In this document: positions 12,999 to 34,232 of the stretch, piece by piece
Layout of the letters: each line of letters opens with the position of its first letter
How positions within the stretch are numbered: position 1 is the first letter of the stretch
Assembly (NCBI GenBank): GCA_963795855.1
Contig: CAWCIZ010000002.1
Location: 544,001 to 608,000, forward strand
Source of the DNA: Vulcanimicrobiota bacterium
GTDB lineage: Bacteria > Vulcanimicrobiota > Vulcanimicrobiia > Vulcanimicrobiales > Vulcanimicrobiaceae
DNA: 64,000 nucleotides
Direction of reading: 5' to 3'
Translations under genes and position numbers: made by a program
The notes under the pieces: generated by a model
What the model was told of the DNA's origin: nothing
The model's input: the letters and a program-made list of their open reading frames with translations, nothing else
Database searches by the model: none

Positions 12999-15400
12999 AT
13001 GAGTTTGCGGGTGTTCCGTCGAGCGTTCCTCGCCATCGTTATCGCGCTGCTTCCCGTTGCCGCGCTCGCGCAAAGCCAGGAAAATGCGACCATCGTCATT
13101 CGCGTAACGGATGCGACGACGGGCAAGCCCATCGACAACGCGCAAGTCTACTTGCTGGGCGGCGACACGCCGGAGAATTCGCTGACGAACGCGCACGGCG
13201 TCCTGATTTTCGACGTTCCGCCGGCGCTCTATCACGTCCAAGTCAAAGCGCCCGGATACGCCGACAGCAATTCCGCCGAAGTGGATGCGGGCGAAGGACA
13301 GCACTTGGCGGTCGTCGTCAAGATGAGCCTGCGCATCATCGCAGACGTCGTGACGCACCCAAGCATCAGCGTTTCATCGGTGAACGTGGGCGAAGACGGC
13401 GCGCAGCGCAAGGTGTCGCAGTCACTTTCCGACGCATTGAACAAAATCGCCGGCGTGACCGTGGACGACCAACTCTACGGGGACAACTCGGCGTTCAACA
13501 TTTCGCTGCACGGCGCGGACGCATCGCAGACCGCGTACTCGATCGACGGCGTGCACATCGGCGGTGCGGGCGCGCAAGCCGTGAGCGGCCTGCAGGATCT
13601 GTTCAGCGGCAGTTCCATCAATTTTTCTCCGAGCGCCATCAGTACCGCGGGCAGCGTCAACTTCTACACCGCGCAGCCGACGAAGACTGTGGAGTTATCG
13701 CTTCACCGGGACCGTCGGAAACTACGGCAATACGCTCGGTACGTGGCTAGCAACCGGCGGCGGCGGTCGGTTCGCGTTCGCATTCGAGCACACGGGCGGC
13801 GGGCAAGATTATCCGCTCGACGGGCACTTTTTTGCCGATGAATCCGGTTCCGCGTACGTGCATCAGGGCGGTTTCGCTCGAAATGCAAACATGATGAAGG
13901 TCGCGGCCACGCTTTCGCCGGTCTCAACGCTCAAGTACACGCTGATTGGCGGGACGAACGACAACGCGTACATCTGCGCGAGTCAAACGACGCTGCTTCC
14001 GTGCGGACTCGGCCCCGATAGCGGTTCGCATAGTTCCGATATCGTTCAGACGCTCGGGTTCTCGTCTTTAGCCGGAGACACGCAATACAACCTGTTCGCG
14101 AACTACGGAAAGTTTCAGAATGTGCAGCGCCAGCCGTATCGCGCCGTAAACGGATCGCTCAGTCCGTACGAAGCATCGGATTCCTTTCCATGGTTTAATT
14201 CCGGCGCGTACTTGAGTTCGAGCGCGCGCCGGCATACGCTCTCCGGCGGATACTACGGTTCGCTGGATACGAGCACGTATACGTCGACGTACAACGCGGC
14301 ACAAACGCTTACCAGTTCGCGCTCCGAACGGTTCGGAAGCGCCTGGGTGAGCGACAAAGTCAAATCGAACGACAAACTCGCGCTCACCCACACGATCTCG
14401 CAAGCGGGCGGGACGGGAGTGGGAAGTTCGTTCGAACTCGACGAGGACGTGACGTGGCAGCCGCGCACGGCCGACGTCTTCAGCGCCGATCTGGGTATCG
14501 GCAGCAGCGAGCCGGCGAGCGCATTTACCGGCACGCTGGGCGACCCGCTCAGCGCGGATTTCGATTGCTACAACCAGTCGGCGTTCCTGCAAGGCCCGAG
14601 CGATCAGCCCGCGCACGAATCCTCGACGCAATACAGTTTGGGATGGCGTCACACGTGGAAGGACGGCTTCGTCGACGTGAACGCTTATCGCAACGGGTTC
14701 CTCGGTCAAACCGCGCGCGTGGCCGTTCCCTTCGCAGCCGAACCGGCTTCGCTATTTCCGAACGGACCGAATGCGTATCTGCAGCAACTGCAAGCGATCT
14801 GGTCTCAACCGACCGAATGCGGCAGCATGCCCTTCGATCCGTCGCGCGTGTACGTCGATCAGCTTGCGACGAACATCGGACAGGTACAGCAAGGATTTAC
14901 GGTGAGCGCGCAGATTCCGCATGGGCCGGTACGTTTTGCTGTATCCGAATTACGCTACGACCAACTCGTATTTTTCAACGCTCGATCCGCGGCTCTCGGC
15001 GACCGGAAGCCTGTACGCCGCGGGCGCGCAGTTGCCGCATCATCCGCTTCACACGGCCGGGCTAATCGTGGACGGAGTCATTCCACATTCCTCGCTCGAA
15101 TGGTTGGCCGACGCGCAGTTCACGTCTGCAAATAATCCGCAGAATCTTCCCGGTTACACGACCTACAGCGCCGGCCTGGTCGTTCACGCGCTGCGCGGCT
15201 CCCTCGAAATACTCGAGAGCAACATCTTCGGGAATCACACCGGTCTGTTCACGACGTATCAGGGCGTCAATCCGCTCGCGGTGCAAGGCGGCGGCACGTT
15301 TGCGTATGCGACGACGCCCCTAGCCCCGCGCACGTTCACCGTGGAATACGACGTACGCTGGCATCAGCACGAGAAAGCGAAGTCGCCCGTCAAGCACTGA
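12999..15400 (+). CDS. TonB-dependent receptor-like outer-membrane protein, two frameshifts (~13686, ~14920)
   Basis: Signal peptide, carboxypeptidase-regulatory-like domain, plug (LSDALNKIAGV...ISLHG...YSIDGV), beta-strand-rich C-terminus ending PRTFTVEYDVRW. Confidence 0.75.
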
Positions 15401-19704: not shown

Positions 19705-20949
19705 TTAGGCTACCGCGCCGCGATCCGCGCTCTCGGACGATGCAAGTTGCAGCGCGAAGCCTTCCTGAATGAGTTTGCGCACGACTTTGAGCGCATGCTC
19801 GTCCTTTGCGATAAGCGACGCCAGCTCCACGGAAGGCTTGGCTTCGAGTTCCCGAACGATGGACGCGGCATTCTTGCCGAACGTGAGGTTTTTTCCGGAA
19901 AACGCAATCTTGGTGCTTTGTTCGCCTTCGGTCATCTCGTAGAGCATGTTGGCACGCATCGCCACGACTGAATGTTCGTTCAGTTGCGGTAAATCGGCGA
20001 TTTGACGCATCTGCCCGTCTAAGCCGTTCGGACGCTCTTTGAAGAACGAGGACACGGCAGCGTCGAACGCGCCGTGGAGTCGTTCGGACGAGAACACGCT
20101 TTGCAAAACGGCGGCAAACTCCGGGTCCGCCAAGTCGTTGAAGTCGACGGTTCCGCGAAGACGCGGCTCCGCTTCCGCCGCCTTGGCGACTGCGTCGGCG
20201 AGAACGTGATACCACTTGTGCGGATAAAGGCCCAGAGTCACGTGCAGCGAGAGTTCTTCGTTCGCCTTGCCTTCGTGCAAGAATCCGCGCGGAATGTAAA
20301 GCAGGTCGCCCGGCTGCATCTCGATTTCGAGCTGCACGTCGCCGACCGCGTGGAGTTTTTTGTCGAAGAACCGGTCCTCGAGCGGCAGCTGCGAGGGCGC
20401 ATCGTAGACGCGCCAATGCTTGGAACCTTCAATCTGAATGATGATCGTGTCGTGCGTGTCATAGTGCATCGCGAAGCCCTGGTTGCCCGGGGGCGTCATG
20501 TAGACGTTGGCATTTACGCGATGCCGGAAGAACGACTCCATTTCGCGGCAGAGCGTCGCGATGGGCGGGGACATCTTTCCGACGGCATCGAGCACTAACG
20601 AGCAGCCGCCGCTGAACAGCGAACTGACGCGGTCGGGATCGATCAGATCGTATGACGGGGCTTTGCGGTTCTTGGGATCGGATTTGTTCACTTGCGCGTA
20701 CGTATCGATGCGCGCGGAAACACCGTCTTTGACGAGGCCGAGATCCTTGGCACGCACGATGCTGCCGTACAGGATTCGCTCGTACTCCTGCAGCGTGAAA
20801 TAGCGATCGTACCGGTTCGGCTCGTTCCGCGAAATGTGCAGCGGCGCGCGTTCGTAATAGCGCTGCCGGAAATCGTCCAGCGAATGCGGCGCGAGCAGCC
20901 ACGTCAGAACGGCGCGGTCGCGTGCGTTAGAACTCCACATAGTGCTCAT
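19705..20949 (-). CDS. JmjC/cupin_4 Fe(II)/2-oxoglutarate oxygenase (ROXA/NO66-like)
   Basis: NVYMTPPGNQGFAMHYDTHD (HxD), QIEGSKHW, PGDLLYIPRGFLH, SLHVTLG; C-terminal winged-helix-like end (VRKLIQEG). Confidence 0.9.
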   Translation of the reverse strand: MSTMWSSNARDRAVLTWLLAPHSLDDFRQRYYERAPLHISRNEPNRYDRYFTLQEYERILYGSIVRAKDLGLVKDGVSARIDTYAQVNKSDPKNRKAPSYDLIDPDRVSSLFSGGCSLVLDAVGKMSPPIATLCREMESFFRHRVNANVYMTPPGNQGFAMHYDTHDTIIIQIEGSKHWRVYDAPSQLPLEDRFFDKKLHAVGDVQLEIEMQPGDLLYIPRGFLHEGKANEELSLHVTLGLYPHKWYHVLADAVAKAAEAEPRLRGTVDFNDLADPEFAAVLQSVFSSERLHGAFDAAVSSFFKERPNGLDGQMRQIADLPQLNEHSVVAMRANMLYEMTEGEQSTKIAFSGKNLTFGKNAASIVRELEAKPSVELASLIAKDEHALKVVRKLIQEGFALQLASSESADRGAVA

Positions 20950-21040
20950 GGTAATGCAGACGAGCCTTCGGGCAAAGCCGCTCGGGCATCATGCGATGCG
21001 GGTAGAACGTCTCACGGAATCGATGGGACGTGTTGCTCAG

Positions 21041-21089
21041 AAAAATTGGGAGGGGCGCCTCGACGGCGCCCCGACTCGGTTCCCCTCCC
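21041..21089 (-). terminator. Rho-independent terminator-like hairpin after the peptide gene
   Basis: GGGGCGCC-N5-GGCGCCCC (21052-21072), alternative outer stem GGGAGGGG/CCCCTCCC, followed on the minus strand by AATTTTT. Confidence 0.7.
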
Positions 21090-21103
21090 GCAGAGATTCG
21101 CGA

Positions 21104-21274
21104 CTAGTAGTCGCCGTCCGGGAACACGGACTTCGGTCCGCCGAAGTCGCAGTGTGCGGAGTCATCTCCGAAGCCGGAGTTCGGGCTGCACGGGCTCGAT
21201 GCGAAACCCGTCGCTTCGCTCATGAGCGTGCTCATGTGATACGAAGTGACGATGTCAGGCTTGATATAGTCCAT
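21104..21274 (-). CDS. Putative RiPP precursor peptide, 56 aa
   Basis: Manual translation MDYIKPDIVTSYHMSTLMSEATGFASSPCSPNSGFGDDSAHCDFGGPKSVFPDGDY*; CAGGAG SD 6 nt upstream; GC3-rich codons; own terminator; below the ORF-track cutoff. Confidence 0.8.
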   Translation of the reverse strand: MDYIKPDIVTSYHMSTLMSEATGFASSPCSPNSGFGDDSAHCDFGGPKSVFPDGDY

Positions 21275-21327
21275 TACAATCTCCTGGCGTAAGCATGCCG
21301 AGAAGTAGCCTTCACGGTCATATCGCT

Positions 21328-21356
21328 AGGCTACCGCGCGGGGCGGTCCCTTGAAA
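21328..21356 (-). promoter_or_regulatory. Putative promoter of the precursor gene
   Basis: TTTCAA-N17-TAGCCT on the minus strand. Confidence 0.45.
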
Positions 21357-21477
21357 GTGCTCCGTGTATCAGCGCCGGGTGATGATTTACTTCCATGAGA
21401 ATTTGCTGAGAATCGCCGCAATGCGCAATAGGTACCCCGAAAGTCCCACACAGGCGTAGTACTGCAGGACGATATTT

Positions 21478-22647
21478 TCACGCCGCGACCGTACTGAAGA
21501 GCGGGCGGAACAGATCGAGGGTGTGAAGCCTGTGCCAATCGCGCCGTAACTCGGCCGACGTGGGCGCGCCTTCACCGCGGAGTGCCGGGCCTAAGAGCAG
21601 TGAAGGCCGCGTAATCGATGTTCCGAGATTGTGACGTGCAGCGAGCTCGTCGACCAAACCCAGCAATTTCGTCAGCGGCTCTTCCTGCGGGAACCGGCGC
21701 CGAATCAGGTCCTCAATCACCGTGCGGTCGGGTGCGCGAAGAAGCATAGCCAGCAGCAGACGCATTTCCGGCTGCTTCATGCTCTTCATCAGGCGGGTTA
21801 TCAGACGCTCGCGGTGCATTTCGCGGAACGCGCCGGCCGCCGTGCCGGCCAAGCGCGCATGCCGCCGCCGCAGCAAGGCCTGCAATTCGAGCGTTATCGC
21901 GGAGTGCAGTTCTTCGCTTGCCGCGACGCGGCAAGCCTGGTACGAATGCCACCAGTCGCCGCTTGCGACCGCCTTACGCGCGAGATCGGCGAAGAGGTAC
22001 GGGTGCGAGCGATACAGCGTGCGCATCAGTTGCAGGCGCCGCTGCGCCACGATGTCGCGCTCGACGGGGTCCCACGCCAGCCCGGGAGCGACGTAATTGA
22101 ACTGCGGCAGATGCGCGGGCTCGCTGTTGGTCCGAATTACGATGCTGACCGAAGGCGAATTCAAATGCAGCAACGCATGGATGAACGCGCCGCCGGCGTG
22201 GATGGACCGAAAGTCTCCGCGTCCGAGCACTTCCGCCGAGTCGAAGCGCAGGTCGCCGATGCAGAGTTCGCGGCAGAGCCGCTCCTCCGGCGCGAACGCG
22301 TACGTGCTGTGGAAGCTCGACCCGTGCAGTACCCCGAATACGCCTGAAAACGAGTGGTGGTGAATCGTCGTCGGCGAGTCCACCCAAAACAGGATCTCGA
22401 TGTAGAACCCGCGGCCGACATATGCGCGGATTGGGGGCTGGCCGAACTTACTCAATTTCTGGTCCGGAAGATCGAGAGCAGTCATGAACCATTCGACGAC
22501 GTCTTCGAACCGCACGCGATCGAAAACGCCGGAGTCGCCGAGCGCGTTCGTGGCGATCTCCGGAAAGGCCGCCGGATCGCAGTCTGCACCATCCCAGCGC
22601 GACTGAATCTGCTCGCCGAGCTTTTGAAAGAGCTGCATTGCCTCCAT
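21478..22647 (-). CDS. His-triad cupin (cysteine-dioxygenase-like fold) with helical C-terminal extension
   Basis: IEILFWVDSPTTIHHHSFSGVFGVLHG...FIHALLHLNSPSVSIVIR resembles the CDO pattern W-x5-6-IHxH...H. TACGCT 6 nt before ATG. Confidence 0.65.
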   Translation of the reverse strand: MEAMQLFQKLGEQIQSRWDGADCDPAAFPEIATNALGDSGVFDRVRFEDVVEWFMTALDLPDQKLSKFGQPPIRAYVGRGFYIEILFWVDSPTTIHHHSFSGVFGVLHGSSFHSTYAFAPEERLCRELCIGDLRFDSAEVLGRGDFRSIHAGGAFIHALLHLNSPSVSIVIRTNSEPAHLPQFNYVAPGLAWDPVERDIVAQRRLQLMRTLYRSHPYLFADLARKAVASGDWWHSYQACRVAASEELHSAITLELQALLRRRHARLAGTAAGAFREMHRERLITRLMKSMKQPEMRLLLAMLLRAPDRTVIEDLIRRRFPQEEPLTKLLGLVDELAARHNLGTSITRPSLLLGPALRGEGAPTSAELRRDWHRLHTLDLFRPLFSTVAA

Positions 22648-22773
22648 CCGCCAAGCGTACTGCTAAGGCGGCGCCGGCCGACGTTCCATCTGCTCTACGC
22701 GTCTATGGGTCGGCCAACCCATTTCAGGCTTTTTGGAAAGGGCAAGCGGGGCGGGCGTAAAGAAACGCGTGCC

Positions 22774-23421
22774 ATGGAACCGGACTGGCTTGCATGGCAC
22801 CGCGAGTATCGCGATCCCTCGACGAAACTTTCGGAGCGCCTGCAAATCGTGCAGCAGCGCATTCGCGAGACGGTCGACGCCGCGCAATCGCCGCAAATTC
22901 GCATCATCAGCATTTGTGCGGGACAGGGGCACGACGTCCTCGGCGCGCTCGCCGAGCATCCTCGCGCCGATGCGGTTCGAGCACGCCTGGTCGAGATCGA
23001 TTCGCGCAGCGTCGAGATGGGCCGCGTGGCGGCGGAGACGCTGCAACTGCCGGGCGTGGAATTCATCTGCGGCGATGCTTCGGTTACCGATGCGTACGCG
23101 GGCGCCGTTCCGGCGCAACTGGTCGTGTGCTGCGGCGTGTTCGGGAACATCTCGCTGGACGACGTGCGCCGGGCCATCCTGCATTTTCCGCAGCTTTGCG
23201 CGCAAGACGGTATCGTGATTTGGACGCGGCATCGTCGCGATCCCGACGTCACGCCGGAGATTCGGCAGCTCTTCACCGGCAACGGATTCAGCGAAGTCTC
23301 GTACGACGAAACGGAACGGTTCGGCGTCGGCGTCGAACGGCTGACCGATTCGCCGCAGCCGTTCAAAGCGGGGCAGCGTCTCTTTCAGTTCGGCAGCGGG
23401 CTTTGGGCCAATCGCGCGTAA
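22774..23421 (+). CDS. Class I SAM-dependent methyltransferase
   Basis: IISICAGQGHD (motif I), LVEID, GDA, CGVFGNI. Confidence 0.8.
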   Translation: MEPDWLAWHREYRDPSTKLSERLQIVQQRIRETVDAAQSPQIRIISICAGQGHDVLGALAEHPRADAVRARLVEIDSRSVEMGRVAAETLQLPGVEFICGDASVTDAYAGAVPAQLVVCCGVFGNISLDDVRRAILHFPQLCAQDGIVIWTRHRRDPDVTPEIRQLFTGNGFSEVSYDETERFGVGVERLTDSPQPFKAGQRLFQFGSGLWANRA

Positions 23422-24314
23422 GCGAGATGTGCGAATCCGTATTCCTCACGTGAAATGCGGGCGGCGTGCAGGCTAGCGCGATCGGACGAACGGGTGAAGA
23501 TGCTTGCGCCGGTCGGATCTTTCGAATAGCGCGAAAAACACCGTTCGACTTCTTCTCGGTCGACGTCTTCGGGGGCGATGCCGAGTTTCGGCAATAACTC
23601 GAAGACCGCGGCCGGATTCAGCGTGTCATAGTCGATGCAGAGCGTGCCGGGCGTGCTCATGGCGGCGGTACATTGCCACTCGAACACATCCGACCAGAAC
23701 CGGCTCGGCGAGGGATTCCAGCGCTCGGGTTTGCTCATGAGCCGGCGCATCAGCGGCACGCAGGCCGCGCGCGCCTCTTCGGAAACCTCGGCGAGTTTCG
23801 AGCCGATCACCGCTTGCGGATCGCGATAGAGAAATACGAATTGCGCGCTCGGGAATATGCCGCGCAAGGCCGGCAGAAACATCGACGCGAGATTCATGAA
23901 CTTGACGAACAGATACCGCTTCGGTGGCCCGTTCGCCGCGCAGGCGTTAATCGCGCCTCGCAACAGTTCCGCGTCGATGGGCGGCGCTAGCGCCTGCTCC
24001 AGCCGCGTCAGGGGCGGTTCCGCGAGCACCATCGCTTGCGAGACCGCTTTGAGCGCGTTCGCAAGCAGCGTCGAACCGCAATGGGAGACGTGAAAGACGA
24101 ACGTCAGCGGCACGTGCGGCGATAGTTGCGCGAAGCGGCGCAACGCGTCCCCATCAGTGACCAGTTCTTCGCAGCCGCTCTCGCTCAGCCGAGCCAAGGT
24201 TTGCCAGAAGAACGGTTCCGGCACGTCGATGTGCGGGAAACGCATCCACGTCACGCGCCGGCGCGGTCTGGCTCCGTCGATCCAGACGGGAACGAACTCC
24301 CGCGGAACGTTCAC
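23385..24314 (-). CDS. Sulfotransferase-like P-loop protein (paralog 2)
   Basis: FVFHVSHCGSTLL (5'-PSB-like) and FLYRDPQAVIGS (3'-PB-like); GTGA-coupled to paralog 1. Confidence 0.75.
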   Translation of the reverse strand: MNVPREFVPVWIDGARPRRRVTWMRFPHIDVPEPFFWQTLARLSESGCEELVTDGDALRRFAQLSPHVPLTFVFHVSHCGSTLLANALKAVSQAMVLAEPPLTRLEQALAPPIDAELLRGAINACAANGPPKRYLFVKFMNLASMFLPALRGIFPSAQFVFLYRDPQAVIGSKLAEVSEEARAACVPLMRRLMSKPERWNPSPSRFWSDVFEWQCTAAMSTPGTLCIDYDTLNPAAVFELLPKLGIAPEDVDREEVERCFSRYSKDPTGASIFTRSSDRASLHAARISREEYGFAHLAYARLAQSPLPN

Positions 24315-25288
24315 GCCCGCTGCAGTTCCCTCGAGAGCGCGTCGATGCGAGAATACGCGGCTTGCGCAGCTTCATCACGCCGCGTTGCGTCGTGCGATTC
24401 CGAGCCGAACTGCCGCGCTCCGGGGACGTCTTTGGAGTACCAGCGGAACGCTTCGCGCATCAGCGTGGCGTTGAGGTCATCTTCACGAACGCCCGCGAGC
24501 GCGAGCAGTTCGACCGCGCGTTCCGGCGTGAGATCGCGATAATTCGCGCACACCACGTCGCGCGTCAACATCGCCGCCGTGCATTCGGCTTCGAACACGG
24601 TGGACCAGCATTGCGCCGCCGAAGGATTCCAATCGTCGGGTTTGCCGAGCGCGTAGCGGATGAGCGGCATGCGCGATTGGCGCACGGCCTCGCTGACCGC
24701 ATCCTGCAGTTTCGGAATCACTTCCGCGGGATCGCGATAGAGAAAAAGAAACGGACTGTCCGGGAACAGCTCGCGAAACCGCAGCAAAAACAGGCTGGCG
24801 AGATTCATGAGTTTGATGAAGACGTAGCGCTTTGGCGGGCCGCCGTTTGCGAGCGAATTCACGGCCCCGCGAATGAGCGCGCCATGCAGATCTTCGCTGA
24901 ACGGTACGCCGGTTTGCGGGTCGCGCAAGCGCCGCAGCAACTGGCGCGGACCCAGTATCGGCGGCTCGGAAATGACGCGCGCGCCGCTTACGGTTTTGCA
25001 GGCGTTCGCGAAGAGCGTCGACCCGCAGTGCGAAACGTGAAAGATGAACGCAACCGGTGCCGCGGCGGTTTGGATGCCGCACCGCGCGAGGACGTCCGCA
25101 TCGGTGAACCGTTCGGGCTCGCTCGTGCTGATGCGCTCGATGGTTTGGCGGAACGAGGGTTCTGCGGTGCTGAAGGTGTCGTAGGGAAGCCAGCCGACCC
25201 GCAGTTGCGGGCCGTGGCGGAGAAATGATGACGCAAAACAGTCACGCATATACAAGTCGAGCATACTAGGCGGCGCGAAGGGCGTCAC
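24311..25288 (-). CDS. Sulfotransferase-like P-loop protein (paralog 1)
   Basis: FIFHVSHCGSTLF and FLYRDPAEVI. Start uncertain (25288, 25264 or 25249). Confidence 0.75.
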   Translation of the reverse strand: MTPFAPPSMLDLYMRDCFASSFLRHGPQLRVGWLPYDTFSTAEPSFRQTIERISTSEPERFTDADVLARCGIQTAAAPVAFIFHVSHCGSTLFANACKTVSGARVISEPPILGPRQLLRRLRDPQTGVPFSEDLHGALIRGAVNSLANGGPPKRYVFIKLMNLASLFLLRFRELFPDSPFLFLYRDPAEVIPKLQDAVSEAVRQSRMPLIRYALGKPDDWNPSAAQCWSTVFEAECTAAMLTRDVVCANYRDLTPERAVELLALAGVREDDLNATLMREAFRWYSKDVPGARQFGSESHDATRRDEAAQAAYSRIDALSRELQRA

Positions 25289-25310: not shown

Positions 25311-26921
25311 ATGAGCAGAGCGCACTATACCGTGCGGCCGGGCGGTGTCCGGCGCGGCGGGTGTTCCGGCGCGTGGACGGCGAAGAGACGCACCATACGC
25401 CGTTATTTTGCGCTCGTCACGATCCTGCTGCTCGCGGCAGCGTTGCGCTGCTATCATCTCGCGAGCGTGCCGACCGAACTGATCGTCGACGAGATCGACT
25501 TGTACAACTCGGTGAGCAGCATCGTTGCGACGGGGCACGACGTGGACGGTACGCTGCAGCCGTTCCTGTACTCGCAGTTTACGCGAAATCCGCCCGTGTA
25601 TGGTATCGCGTCTTACGCTTCGAGCCGCGTGCTCGGCAAGAACGCGTTCGGACTTCGCTTCCCGGCGGTGCTGTTCGGGCTTGCTGCGATCGTCTTCGTC
25701 TTTTTGCTCGTCCAGGAGATAACCCGGCGAGACGCCGTGGCGCTGCTGGCGGCGCTGTTCGTCGCGGTTGCGCCGATCTTCGTCCAATTCTCGCGCATCG
25801 GCTGGGAACCGGCCGCGGAGCTGCCGTTTCTGCTTGCCGGGTTGTATCTGCTTATGCGCGGCATTCGGCTTTCCGGGTCGAACTACGCGTTCTCCGCTAT
25901 AGCGTTGGCGATCGCGTGCTATACGTACATGACGGGGTGGTTTTACGCCGTCATTCTCGCGGGCAGCGCGCTGGCGATTCACTGGAAGAGCTTTCGTTCG
26001 TGGAAGTCCGCGCAGCCGCTACTCGGCGCGCTGGTGCTTTGGGCCGCACTTGCGGCGCCGGCGCTGTGGATGTGTTTTTTCGATCCGCTGACGGCGTCAA
26101 AGGTCTCGCGCGTATCGACGTTCTCGCACGGCGTAACGTTGGATGCACTTAAGGTCTTCATGCACAACTATGCAGCGCACTTTAGTCTTTCGTACCTCGT
26201 CGTCAACGGTGCGGCTGAGGCCGGTTCGACGTGGCGATATTTGAACGGGTTCGGTGCGTTTTATTGGTGGATTATTCCGCTTGCGGCCGCCGGGCTCGTC
26301 GCGACCTGGAGCGGTGCGTTTGACAAGCGCGTTCGCGCGTGGCTGATCGTATGGCTGCTCGCATATCCGCTTGCCGGCGCAGTGACGAACGACGGCGTGC
26401 CGAATGCGCCGCGAACGCTCGCCGGCGCTCCCGTCTTCTGTATCTTTGCCGCAATCGGCGCGTTCGATCTATACGCGTGGATTTCTACGTCCGTCGCGAA
26501 GTCGCGCCGAGTCTTGCAAATCGTTGGAGCCGCCGTACTGCTCCTGTCCGTGTTTCGGTTTTCGGCCAACTATTTCGTTTACTACGTGCACCGCAATTCA
26601 AACGCATGGGACTCGGGCACGCGCTCGATGTTCGCCGCGATCGAACGTTACCGCAGCCGTTACGAACGCGTGTGCATCTCCGTGTGGCCGGCGTGGTACG
26701 GAATCGAGTCCTACTTGCGGTTTTACATGCCGGGCGACGATGGCGTCATCACCTCGATTTCTGCGCCGGCGTGTTATTTGCCGGGGACGCTGCTGGTGAC
26801 GGACAACGATCAGCACGTTTCCCGGCATGGCTTTACGCCGCTGACCACGATTCGGGACGTAAACGGGGCAGGTTTTGCGCATATCAGCGGGCGTTCAGTC
26901 GAGTTTGCGCAGCACCGCTGA
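25311..26921 (+). CDS. ArnT/PMT-like (GT-C fold) membrane glycosyltransferase
   Basis: LRCYHLASVP...DE, FGLRFPAVLFG, FSRIGWE; many TM segments. Confidence 0.8.
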   Translation: MSRAHYTVRPGGVRRGGCSGAWTAKRRTIRRYFALVTILLLAAALRCYHLASVPTELIVDEIDLYNSVSSIVATGHDVDGTLQPFLYSQFTRNPPVYGIASYASSRVLGKNAFGLRFPAVLFGLAAIVFVFLLVQEITRRDAVALLAALFVAVAPIFVQFSRIGWEPAAELPFLLAGLYLLMRGIRLSGSNYAFSAIALAIACYTYMTGWFYAVILAGSALAIHWKSFRSWKSAQPLLGALVLWAALAAPALWMCFFDPLTASKVSRVSTFSHGVTLDALKVFMHNYAAHFSLSYLVVNGAAEAGSTWRYLNGFGAFYWWIIPLAAAGLVATWSGAFDKRVRAWLIVWLLAYPLAGAVTNDGVPNAPRTLAGAPVFCIFAAIGAFDLYAWISTSVAKSRRVLQIVGAAVLLLSVFRFSANYFVYYVHRNSNAWDSGTRSMFAAIERYRSRYERVCISVWPAWYGIESYLRFYMPGDDGVITSISAPACYLPGTLLVTDNDQHVSRHGFTPLTTIRDVNGAGFAHISGRSVEFAQHR

Positions 26922-31946: not shown

Positions 31947-33189
31947 ATGAGTACTCCGGTTCCGGTTAACATCGGCAACACCGCATTCATGCTCATCTGT
32001 GCGAGCCTCGTCATGCTCATGACGCCGGGGCTCGCGTTTTTTTACGGGGGCCTGGTCGGCCGTAAAAACGTGCTGACGATCATGATTCAGAGACTTCATG
32101 TCGCTCGGATGGACGACGGTCGTCTGGGTCGCAGTCGGCTATTCGATGTGCTTCGGCAACGACTGGCACGGCGTCATCGGCAATCCGGCGCAATACTTCT
32201 TCCTGCGCGGCGTAACGCTGCACACGATGTTCATGGGCAACGACGCCGGCATTCCGCTGGTCGTGCACATCGCCTATCAGATGATGTTCGCCATCATCAC
32301 GCCGGCGCTCATCACCGGTGCGTTCGCAAACCGCGTCACGTTCAAAGCATACTTTCTCTTTCTTACCGGCTGGCTGCTGTTCGTCTATTTCCCGTTCGTC
32401 CACATGATCTGGAGCCCGGACGGCGCGCTCGCGAAATGGGGCGTACTCGATTTCGCGGGCGGCATTGTGGTGCATGCGTCCGCGGGGTTCGCGGCACTTG
32501 CTTCGGTGCTGTTCATCGGGCGGCGCTACGTGATCGAAAACAAGCCGCATAACGTTCCGCTGATCGCGCTCGGCACCGGTTTGCTGTGGTTCGGCTGGTA
32601 CGGATTCAACGCCGGCTCGGAGCTGCGCGTCGACGCCGTTACTGCGTCGGCATTTTTGAACACCGACGTTGCGGCATCGTTTGCGGCCGTTGCGTGGCTT
32701 CTGATCGAATGGGCGCGCGGCAGACAACCGAAATTCGTCGGCTTGCTGACCGGCGCCGTTGCGGGGCTTGCAACGATTACTCCGGCGGCGGGGTACGTTT
32801 CACCGGTTGCCGCGATTTTGTTCGGTCTGCTGGCCGGCGCGGTGTGCTACTATGCGGTCGCGCTGAAAAACCGGCTTGGCTGGGACGACGCGCTGGACGT
32901 CTGGGGCGTGCACGGCGTCGGCGGCGTGCTGGGCATCACGCTGCTCGGCATCTTTGCTACGAAACTGTGGAACCCGGCCGGCGCGAACGGTTTGCTGTTC
33001 GGCGGCGCGTCGTTCTTCGGCAAGCAAGTCGCCGCTGCAGTATTTTGCAGTGCGTGGGCCTTCGCGTTTACGTACGGAATGCTCTGGCTCATCAGCCGCG
33101 TCACGCTGACCAAAGTACCGCGCGATGCCGAAGAGCGCGGATTGGACATCGAACTGCACGGCGAGGAAGCCTACCCGCTCGGCATCTGA
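31947..33189 (+). CDS. amtB: Ammonium transporter, frameshifted near 32093
   Basis: LVMLMTPGLAFFYGG, DFAGGIVVH, LLWFGWYGFNAGS, DDALDVWGVHGVGG. Confidence 0.93.
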
Positions 33190-33202
33190 CTCGCGGGAAG
33201 AC

Positions 33203-34232
33203 ATGCTCGCGCTGCTCGGCATCTTGCTGCTCGCGCAGGCGGTACCGTCGCCGTCCGCCTCGCCAAACCCGCAGCCTACCCAGACTCCGGCGCCGGCGAT
33301 CGCCGTCGCCCCGGAGTTTGCGCTGTACGATTTTCAAACGGCCGACGTGTCGGACGCATTGCTGAATTTCAGCATCAATCTCGGCAAGCTGCACGCCAAC
33401 GCGACCGCAGGCGATTATGCTTTTCCGGTCGTCGGGTTTCCGCTGGTTCCGGACAATGCTCCGGGTGCGAACGTTGCTTTGTACAGTCCGCTGCCGCTTG
33501 CCACGCTGACGTATCAATTCAATCCGCACGGCGGCATCACTGCCGGAAAATTTGCCTCACTGCTCGGTCAAGAGTCACCGTTCACCTACCAAAACCTGAA
33601 CGTGCAGCGTGGAATCGCATGGAACATGGAGCCGGCTATCAGCCGCGGCGTGCAATTCGGCTGACTCCAACGGCCCGTGGAGCGCGAATCTGCGCGAGGA
33701 CGACGCGTATTACTCCGGCAGTAATCGCGCCTTTGAGGGTCTTGTGGGCTGGTCACCGTCCACGAATACGAGCGTCCAGTTTGCGGCAATGATTCCGGGC
33801 GCAAACGTTCCGCCCAACGTAACGACGAGCGTGGGCAACAAACAAGAGTACGATTTGATGTATACGCGCACCATCGGCAAACTCGAGGTGCTGCCGTACG
33901 TTTTGTGGGTGCATTCTCCGGCGTCGCACGTGCTCGGTTATACGAACGGCGAAAACGCTAACGCGGAGGTACTGCTCGGAACGTGGACGTTCTCGCCCCA
34001 ATGGAGCGTTGCGTTTCGCTACGAGGAGGCGCGCAACGCGAGCTCCGCGTCGGACCCGAGCCCGAACGCGGATCTCGTCGGCTTTGGTGCGGGCGCCAGC
34101 GCCATATCGCAAACGCTTACTTCTGCGTATCATTTCGGAAACGGCGGCGTGGTGCGTCTCGAGTACTCGCACGTTTCGGCTACTAATCTAATTCAAAATC
34201 GCTTCGGGTTCGAATTCGGCGTCATGCATTGA
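33203..34232 (+). CDS. Outer-membrane beta-barrel (putative porin), frameshifted near 33662
   Basis: Signal peptide; ITAGKFASLLGQE; amphipathic beta strands; VRLEYSH...FGFEFG C-terminus. Confidence 0.7.

Follow-up and report, generated by a model that had tools for sequence, protein, structure and literature searches.

Organization of the locus

We analyzed a 64,000-nucleotide stretch (the window) of contig CAWCIZ010000002.1 from a Vulcanimicrobiota bacterium (GCA_963795855.1), and examined a locus in which a 56-residue open reading frame (ORF) lies among genes for a JmjC oxygenase, a cupin, two sulfotransferase-fold proteins (ST1 and ST2), and a methyltransferase. The genome of the window is designated G000 (3.06 Mb, 86% complete) and its contigs C1-C3; other G numbers are genomes of the phylum, and L numbers are loci. 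An initial annotation had read the short ORF as the precursor of a RiPP, a peptide made on ribosomes and modified after its translation. The six genes that it listed were all intact, with the coordinates and order that it gave, and the features of the locus are as follows.

19705..20949, minus strand: NO66/ROX-type JmjC Fe/2-oxoglutarate (2OG) oxygenase, 414 aa (the start may be Met4); JmjC_2 match, E 1.5e-29
21048..21089, minus strand: stem-loop and short U-rich tract between the precursor and JmjC genes, terminator-like or mRNA-stabilizing, from folding energy
21104..21274, minus strand: precursor peptide gene, 56 aa, from leader conservation and genomic context
21281..21285, minus strand: ribosome-binding site AGGAG of the precursor gene, 6 nt upstream of the ORF
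21478..22647, minus strand: cupin with a predicted thiol-dioxygenase fold, 389 aa, H96/H98/H157, and a C-terminal helical domain
22774..23421, plus strand: S-adenosylmethionine (SAM) methyltransferase-like gene, inverted, very probably a passenger; weak Pfam methyltransferase matches
23385..24314, minus strand: ST2, sulfotransferase-fold protein, 309 aa; Sulfotransfer_3 match, E 4.5e-6
24311..25288, minus strand: ST1, sulfotransferase-fold protein, 325 aa; Sulfotransfer_3 match, E 0.06

The locus consists of more than one operon, as the methyltransferase gene is inserted head-to-head with the cupin gene and tail-to-tail with ST2. Its GC content did not depart from that of the rest of the window. 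No Pfam or NCBIfam family was matched by the cupin or the peptide, and NCBIfam added nothing for the other ORFs. The initial annotation had seen no LanM, YcaO, radical SAM, or lasso cyclase in the window, and none was found among the 61 window ORFs that were scanned. In the 86% complete genome there was no match to the lasso B2 peptidase (PF13471) or to YcaO, and the one short LanC-like ORF had no precursor nearby; lasso, lanthipeptide, and YcaO routes were therefore rejected. One full asparagine-synthase-family (Asn_synthase) gene lies outside the window.

A precursor family paired with a JmjC oxygenase

The window precursor has a leader of about residues 1-23 and a core starting at F24-x-S26, with two Cys, five Asp, and a C-terminal Asp-Tyr. 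Six related short ORFs were found in G000, three of them directly upstream of JmjC genes. These are the window copy, one copy upstream of a JmjC-cupin-JmjC group on C1, and one upstream of a JmjC gene at 108.6 kb of C2; two more stand in tandem at 121.5 kb of C2, and the last is an orphan on C3. When 11 JmjC-linked precursors were compared, M1, Y3, P6, Y12, L17, G23, F24, and S26 were invariant, and the consensus of the leader region was Y-x-x-P-x5-Y-x4-L-x5-G-F-x-S. Over the 24 leader codons of these members (1320 codon pairs), mismatch was highest at the third codon position (0.63, against 0.38 at the first and 0.34 at the second), and different codons were used in 394 of the 659 pairs that had the same residue. 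This excess of third-position changes indicated selection at the protein level, and hence that the peptide is more than a chance ORF. The cores, by comparison, were variable and 14-35 residues long. All 11 held 2-6 Asp and 10 held exactly two Cys, the remaining one, from G038, having neither Cys nor Tyr; His occurred in six and Tyr in four.

We then extended the search to 400 further genomes of the phylum, of which the JmjC query matched 63 at E up to 1e-20 (the unpublished G277 among them) and seven at E < 1e-100, with the next genome at 1e-53. A nine-row precursor model, to which four of these seven genomes had contributed one row and G207, G253, and G289 none, found eight genomes with E no higher than 0.01, namely these seven, in which a precursor stands directly upstream of a JmjC gene, and G051 (E 0.009). 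A precursor lay within 1.5 kb of the best JmjC match at seven of eight close loci versus none of 22 loci with a distant JmjC. At the eighth close locus the best match was the last gene of a run of four JmjC genes, and two precursors lay upstream of the run. The unpublished G289 enters only the seven-genome tallies and the seven of eight, which without it become six and six of seven. The precursor-carrying genomes are related, but are spread over two families and six genera, whereas the peptide was found in none of seven relatives of G000 within its genus. This distribution is patchy and suggests that the pair moves together.

The proposal of the initial annotation, that the ORF is the precursor of a RiPP and has a YxxP leader that is conserved, was thus upheld by the invariant leader positions, the codon-level selection, and the similar short ORFs at homologous loci. 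As judged from sequence comparison, the precursor and the JmjC form the only conserved unit, and the 56-aa ORF is a member of a real RiPP precursor family, a RiPP by its layout.

Two further precursor-JmjC modules of G000 were recorded at C1 247-251 kb (L003:7070-11123) and C2 108.6 kb (L004:6623-7956), the former also holding a paralog of the cupin and another JmjC that is divergent. Both paralogous JmjC genes 3' of precursors are broken by frameshifts, as is an adenylylsulfate (APS) kinase gene; because unrelated genes are affected alike, this suggests indels of the assembly. Orphan members of the family with no enzyme nearby occur at L023:1450-1602 (C3 683.7 kb of G000), L297:7512-7664, and L298:5281-5406, and suggest processing in trans.

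A second cluster on the same contig carries the same leader

The initial annotation had remarked on the lack of a RiPP recognition element (RRE), a protease, and an exporter. None was indeed present in the locus, but candidates were found elsewhere in the genome together with precursors of the same leader. They belong to a cluster at C2 ~119.9-124.5 kb (L004:17936-19692, L005:7793-10522), on the contig of the window, that resembles those of the linear polyphosphorylated peptides (LPPs), described from Bacillota (Popov et al. 2026, PMC13381572). The LPP core genes encode an RRE, a signal-peptidase-like protease, an HprK-like kinase, an NTP transferase, and an ABC transporter, within a polysaccharide locus (PMC13381572). 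In G000, the tandem precursors at C2 121.5 kb have the leader of the window precursor. Downstream of them come genes for PqqD, an HprK-like kinase, and an S24/S26 peptidase, upstream of them an ABC-2 transporter and an NTP_transf_5 gene, and the whole lies within a polysaccharide locus. The HprK-like kinase and archaeal-SpI matches were under their curated cut-offs.

LPP-like clusters with same-leader precursors were also found in G253, G379, G037, and G038. In G253 and G379 that polysaccharide locus has precursor-JmjC modules on its flanks, as it does in G000 with the module at C2 108.6 kb, and in G072 PqqD, precursor, JmjC, and two HprK-like genes form one run. Overall, five of the six other published precursor genomes had a PqqD gene. 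The missing functions are thus probably supplied in trans.

The LPP leader consensus is YxxPxVLxHQxIxFETxxS, and core Ser3 is phosphorylated (PMC13381572). Two cleavage registers of our family fit the LPP rules, one after Gly23 (small-x-small, with Ser26 as core Ser3) and the other after Ser26 (L-10 and F-3, as in LppA). The Gly23 register also fits related leaders that lack Phe, and we favored it by a modest degree. A 32-aa kinase-linked precursor at L004:19594-19692 was noted to lack the two Cys of its G253 and G379 orthologs, possibly through another indel.

The JmjC oxygenase

The HxD...H triad (H162, D164, and H225) and the 2OG-binding Lys (K177) were invariant in 14 aligned JmjC homologs. 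The predicted structure (pLDDT 90.5) contained the dimerization and winged-helix domains, and matched human NO66 best over residues 6-408 (Z 30.5, rmsd 4.7, 378 aligned), followed by MINA53, YxbC (Z 19.6), and YcfD. By sequence, NO66 was likewise far closer (E 2e-28) than YcfD (7e-10). The NO66/ROX-like identity given by the initial annotation was confirmed by this fold and the intact catalytic residues. The protein shares the whole architecture of NO66, MINA53, and YcfD (JmjC, dimerization helices, winged helix), but it is closer to eukaryotic NO66 than to bacterial YcfD, and it occurs as several paralogs in a genome, each with a neighboring peptide gene. There are up to four such paralogs per genome, paired with different cores. 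The largest module, in G253 (L244:5016-14422), holds a Carn_acyltransf acyltransferase, two precursors, four JmjC genes, and a sulfotransferase with His in its catalytic loop.

Given its genome-level co-occurrence and adjacency with the precursor, the NO66-like JmjC is very likely a dedicated maturase of that precursor, and the genomic context points to a peptide substrate rather than a ribosomal protein. A precedent exists for such a role, as the JmjC enzyme CzlI, close to YxbC, converts Phe to Tyr in a RiPP precursor (PMC11575548), and the JmjC enzymes BipG and PbsQ hydroxylate a RiPP precursor (Orn; PMC12707348, PMC12257519). Asp and Asn are the only side chains common to all cores besides the F-x-S start, and for this reason their beta-hydroxylation is the most likely reaction, with about an even chance of being correct.

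A rarer chemistry, improbable in our assessment, would be a conversion of Phe24 that yields a Tyr open to sulfation, or oxidative cross-linking at Cys. Phe24 is invariant in all 11 JmjC-linked precursors and variable in kinase-linked precursors of genomes without the JmjC; CzlI performs the former reaction, YxbC was the third-best fold match, and a 2OG-dependent Cys-Tyr cross-link in a RiPP has been reported (PMC12636437). That cross-link belongs to a 2OG-dependent RiPP macrocyclization reportedly described by Xia et al. in 2025. On the other hand, Tyr is absent from seven of the 11 cores and Cys from one. Genomes that have the JmjC also retain the Phe in their kinase-linked precursors, so that it may be a cleavage determinant like F-3 of the LPPs.

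The C-terminal domain of the JmjC is predicted to be a beta3-alpha3 winged helix of RRE-like order, and RRE-like folds fused to JmjC, with bacterial homologs in RiPP-like contexts, were left undefined in PMC12710340. The module might thus be self-sufficient, the winged helix reading the YxxP leader, general proteases trimming the product, and the LPP-like cluster being only the evolutionary source of the leader. We consider this unlikely, though a serious contender. The JmjC tail had no significant match to a profile of eight PqqD proteins (probability 0.3%, E 0.22), and no PqqD-like chain was among the 50 fold matches listed, which the catalytic domain filled. The same winged helix is present in NO66, MINA, and YcfD, which act on ribosomal proteins, and the PqqD gene accompanies most of the precursors, as described above.

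It is very improbable that the peptide gene encodes a small protein or a leader peptide with a regulatory role, the JmjC hydroxylating an ordinary protein as YcfD does. Attenuators do have such a layout, with a short ORF and then a terminator-like hairpin upstream of a gene, and the best structural relatives of the JmjC are ribosomal oxygenases. Yet the N-terminus of the peptide is conserved and its C-terminus hypervariable, the same leader occurs beside PqqD, kinase, and peptidase genes, JmjC paralogs of one genome face different cores, and distant JmjC loci have no such ORF. As to the terminator reported by the initial annotation, a hairpin exists (21089-21048; -29.5 kcal/mol, z -1.97), but it is modest: 8 of 200 shuffles were equally good, and a terminator scan of the window did not call it. 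A hairpin with a U-rich tail lay 3' of five of six precursors tested, the one in the window being the weakest of those five. Four of five homologous precursors tested had stronger hairpins (z -2.6 to -6.2).

The cupin

Clustered at 50% identity, the family of the cupin comprises 2,224 representatives, of which 1,984 matched at E up to 1e-10; it has no Pfam model and only unnamed clusters in the Atlas. In its predicted structure (pLDDT 88.4), the top seven fold matches were all thiol dioxygenases (CDO, MDO, ADO, and plant cysteine oxidase; Z 13.0-10.0, rmsd 3.4-4.2, 142-172 aligned), and the next match had Z 8.5. It shares with these enzymes the fold and a three-His motif, but differs in its low identity (10-16%), its extra helical domain of 190 residues, its lack of a Pfam match, its frequent RiPP context, and the absence of Cys from some linked precursors. 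H157, H161, W88, and R172 were invariant in all 158 rows of the alignment; the conservation of H96 and H98 was preset, as they belonged to the search pattern. We take H96, H98, and H157 to correspond to the metal ligands of CDO. ADO and plant cysteine oxidase act on peptides.

We examined 160 cupin loci (the best 80 of 341 and the best 80 of at least 549), of which two short rows were left out of the tree. The closest named relatives were from Vulcanimicrobiota (Eremiobacterota). Apart from a large clade that is discussed below, the tree held 58 rows from outside the window, of which 32 were labeled RiPP-like by hand, many of them being near-copies or on short contigs. Family scans found B2 over its cut-off, with cyclase-like genes under theirs, at L151, L176, and L115, a class I lanthipeptide leader over cut-off at L054, and radical SAM/SPASM genes at L126, L128, and L117.

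Within the precursor-carrying genomes, the cupin was present in G000, G379, G253, and G072. It adjoins precursor and JmjC at two loci of G000 and one of G379, three in all, and was found in none of 60 relatives examined. The cupin would be an optional second oxidase on the peptide, a role slightly more probable than its alternatives. Its simplest target would be a core Cys, which we propose only tentatively.

Other contexts of the family were observed as well. The cupin stands inside lasso clusters, beside B2 and cyclase genes, at L149, L151, L159, L176, L177, L179, L182, L115, L074, and L036/L130, where the precursors mostly have acidic tails and no Cys, and it is a candidate for an undescribed lasso tailoring enzyme. 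At L054:7782-7955, L085:7611-7787, L131:2585-2749, L104:7789-7947, and L126:8990-9175, it lies directly next to one short peptide whose leader is lanthipeptide-type or double-glycine-like, and no synthetase was seen nearby; L126 has two radical SAM genes. Peptide, cupin, and JmjC also come together in a second system, the conserved precursor of which is unrelated, at L029:7706-11544, L035:7738-11456, and L111-L113, from three phyla or sources. Its peptide of 75-96 aa, with Pro-Cys-Pro and a His-Asn-His stretch, is followed by a cupin of the same family, often fused to a 300-aa domain without a Pfam match, and then by a NO66-like JmjC.

The sulfotransferase pair and the methyltransferase

ST1 and ST2 are 42% identical. 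ST2 was over the Pfam Sulfotransfer_3 cut-off and ST1 below it; the sulfotransferase fold was matched by an Atlas feature score of 0.98 to the Sulfotransfer_3 family, and the closest solved structures were TPST1/2 (weak, E 0.014). The sulfotransferase query matched 39 of the 400 phylum genomes, of which only G253 was close (44%, E 1e-70; next 2e-24). In G253 the ortholog lies inside the precursor-JmjC run, between JmjC genes and right after a precursor. Both G253 precursors end in Tyr-Asp and the window precursor in Asp-Tyr, and thus all three cores at sulfotransferase loci have such an end, while among the other eight JmjC-linked cores only one, from G000, has any Tyr. The C-terminal Asp-Tyr, whose Tyr56 the initial annotation had proposed as a sulfation site, is not a motif of the family, as Tyr stands beside Asp at the end only in the three precursors of these two loci. 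The APS kinase gene was present in both sulfotransferase genomes (G000 and G253) and in one of four other precursor genomes tested.

Sulfotransferase relatives with Arg in the catalytic loop (L253, L254, L256, L257, L252) are common in one genus, in 27 of 33 genomes. At four of seven of their loci the neighbors are presumably Nif11-like small ORFs and tail-collar-like genes. Since the gene context differed at these four loci, the distant phylum sulfotransferases were rejected as part of the same system.

The methyltransferase was not found in any of five precursor genomes tested or near any of the 160 cupin loci, and among 200 phylum genomes it was found in one, which had neither the precursor nor a close JmjC. 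It was rejected as a pathway member on its absence from the precursor genomes and cupin loci, and the suspicion of the initial annotation that it might be a passenger proved well founded; with high confidence, it takes no part. Near the 160 cupin loci, a JmjC was found at four (tblastn) or five (HMM), a sulfotransferase at none or one, and the precursor family at one. With enzymes that co-occur so rarely, the five-enzyme set was rejected as a conserved unit. Of the enzyme set put forward by the initial annotation, only the JmjC recurs as a unit with the precursor; the sulfotransferase is in one of 400 other genomes, and the cupin in three of the six other published precursor genomes.

A proposed pathway

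Taken together, the locus is probably, though by no great margin of confidence, a satellite module of a cyclase-free Vulcanimicrobiota (Eremiobacterota) RiPP system related to the LPPs. On the observed family, pairing, folds, and motifs we built the following pathway, of which every chemical step and the link in trans is inferred. The 56-aa ORF would almost certainly be translated as a leader-core precursor. It would be bound via its YxxP leader, and the NO66-like JmjC may, with even chances, beta-hydroxylate core Asp/Asn. The cupin, where present, would oxidize the peptide, perhaps at a core Cys; failing that, the two Cys would form a disulfide loop. ST2, perhaps with ST1 as its partner, might sulfate the C-terminal Tyr of Asp-Tyr/Tyr-Asp cores, a step that falls slightly short of an even chance. 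Phosphorylation of Ser26 is a possible extra step. Binding of the leader, cleavage after small-x-Gly23 so that Ser26 is core Ser3, and export of the product would fall to the PqqD-type RRE, S24/S26 peptidase, and ABC-2 exporter that the LPP-like cluster encodes on this contig, which we hold to be somewhat more probable than not. The methyltransferase would, very likely, be uninvolved. The product would be a linear or disulfide-looped peptide that is acidic, hydroxylated, and in this case sulfated, and it would probably be connected with the cell-surface polysaccharide locus that houses its relatives.

Several observations weigh against this reading. For sulfation, the residue of the 5'-phosphosulfate-binding (PSB) loop is His in all seven close sequences (ST1, ST2, the G253 ortholog, and four metagenome homologs), as opposed to Arg in 11 of 12 distant aligned sequences, the alignment having taken in 16 of 24 non-self matches. 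It is also Arg in all 27 distant phylum homologs (28 loci) in which the motif was readable. In the lanthipeptide sulfotransferase SslST, R12A abolished activity and S183A nearly so (PMC11143521); from motif spacing, we infer that these residues are the PSB-loop and 3'-phosphate-binding (3'-PB) positions here. ST2 and the G253 ortholog keep both the 3'-PB Arg and Ser, but ST1 has Lys for the Ser, which is lost in the ST1 ortholog P0164 as well. Furthermore, the correlation of Tyr with the sulfotransferase comes from two loci only. For the cupin, a Verrucomicrobiota/Planctomycetota clade of 99 of the 158 tree rows was stand-alone with no RiPP context seen, and the closest relatives of the window cupin are mostly outside recognizable RiPP clusters. 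Candidate precursors without Cys (L104, L128, L149, L151, L176/L179, and L177/L182) do not fit uniform Cys oxidation, and no cupin was found in G037, G038, and G207, three of the six other published precursor genomes. For the link in trans, 440 kb separate the locus from the LPP-like cluster, the exporter encoded there is ABC-2 and not MsbA-like, the YxxP lies farther from the cut site than in LPPs, and G207 (93% complete) had precursor and JmjC with no PqqD or S24/S26 match. Because of the PSB-loop His and the lost 3'-PB Ser, sulfation is a plausible but insecure reading of the sequences, and ST1 may assist ST2 without catalysis of its own.

The JmjC could accordingly be the sole modifier, the cupin and the sulfotransferase pair being mobile neighbors with other targets (small thiol, polysaccharide, or another protein) or a donor other than 3'-phosphoadenosine 5'-phosphosulfate (PAPS). 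The change of PSB Arg to His throughout the clade, the stand-alone position of most cupin family members, the restriction of the sulfotransferase to just one other precursor genome, and the inverted methyltransferase between ST1/ST2 and the cupin and precursor all agree with this. But the G253 ortholog sits between JmjC genes right after a precursor, the PSB-loop His is kept in every close homolog and so is not decay, the terminal Tyr-Asp tracks the sulfotransferase loci, and the cupin adjoins precursor and JmjC three times. We therefore regard a sole JmjC modifier as a minority view, and retained the pathway with optional cupin and sulfotransferase steps.

Comparison with known systems

Like LPPs, the system has a YxxP leader, no cyclase, and an invariant Ser readable as core Ser3, and the cluster at C2 120-124 kb unites the LPP gene set with the window-type leader. 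Unlike LPP loci, the window locus has no LPP core gene itself. Its leader departs from the LPP consensus, with only YxxP, the L..F spacing of seven, and the final Ser in agreement. The ABC-2 exporter, the leader spacing, and the Cys pair in the cores differ too, and the accessible part of the LPP paper mentions no JmjC, cupin, or sulfotransferase (PMC13381572).

With sulfatyrotides (RaxX/RaxST) and sulfated lanthipeptides (SslST; PMC11143521), the locus shares the sulfotransferase fold, an acidic residue beside Tyr, and a linear precursor. It differs from them by His for the essential PSB Arg, twin genes, the YxxP leader, oxygenases, and the lack of LanM. Conserved Tyr sulfation defines the sulfatyrotide class, whereas most cores here (seven of 11) have no Tyr and the sulfotransferase is in two of eight precursor genomes. 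We also take the locus to lack the RaxB-type peptidase-transporter of sulfatyrotide systems. Tailoring by JmjC enzymes (CzlI of curacozole; BipG/BpmG/PbsQ of biphenomycin) is similar in that an Fe/2OG enzyme beside the precursor hydroxylates a peptide residue; compared by context, those products are defined by YcaO or MNIO/radical SAM enzymes, while here the JmjC is the sole constant partner. Lasso peptides of the paeninodin type share the YxxP motif, and PqqD, HprK-like kinase, and NTP transferase are in the genome, but there is no B2 peptidase in the genome and no cyclase in any precursor locus examined.

By layout the locus is therefore a RiPP, and by membership it is not an LPP, lasso peptide, or sulfatyrotide; our verdict is an undescribed, cyclase-free RiPP branch. 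A full-text literature search, with subscription papers mostly outside its coverage, found the precursor family nowhere described, and neither a RiPP maturase resembling NO66 nor a RiPP enzyme of thiol-dioxygenase fold; passages of PMC13060819, PMC9259500, and PMC12871766 had no bearing on the locus. It is doubtful, but conceivable, that a new RiPP class is at hand, with the NO66-like oxygenase as its defining enzyme, the first peptide maturase of thiol-dioxygenase fold, which would oxidize internal residues and come from a family of some 2,000 sequence clusters taken up into lasso, lanthipeptide-leader, radical-SAM, and the present clusters, and a His-loop sulfotransferase heterodimer for the addition of sulfate, all of them plug-in modules on a shared LPP-like leader/RRE/peptidase.

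The locus offers a small, defined, and testable RiPP family. It comes from a soil phylum of which little has been cultured, and its precursors and enzymes form natural pairs that differ in core and enzyme set. If the role of the JmjC is correct, this bacterial enzyme of NO66 type, with a peptide precursor as its substrate, would link the ribosomal oxygenases to RiPP maturases, and its chemistry could be new. The cupin, as an unannotated thiol-dioxygenase-fold family in several RiPP classes, and the sulfotransferase clade, with His for the catalytic-loop Arg, could each show new chemistry. The LPP design would extend beyond Bacillota to Vulcanimicrobiota, and the arrangement suggests that one RRE/peptidase hub may serve dispersed modules.

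Neighboring genes

A PMT-type membrane glycosyltransferase gene lies at 25311-26921 of the window (plus strand), divergent from ST1. PMT-type-looking genes also flank the cupin on C1 and in G253, with weak sequence similarity; the match between the flanking gene of the window and the one beside the G253 cupin was weak and covered 81 residues. Elsewhere in the window, TonB-dependent-receptor-like and porin genes (12999-15400 and 32098-34232) are broken into several ORFs, which fits frequent indels in the assembly.

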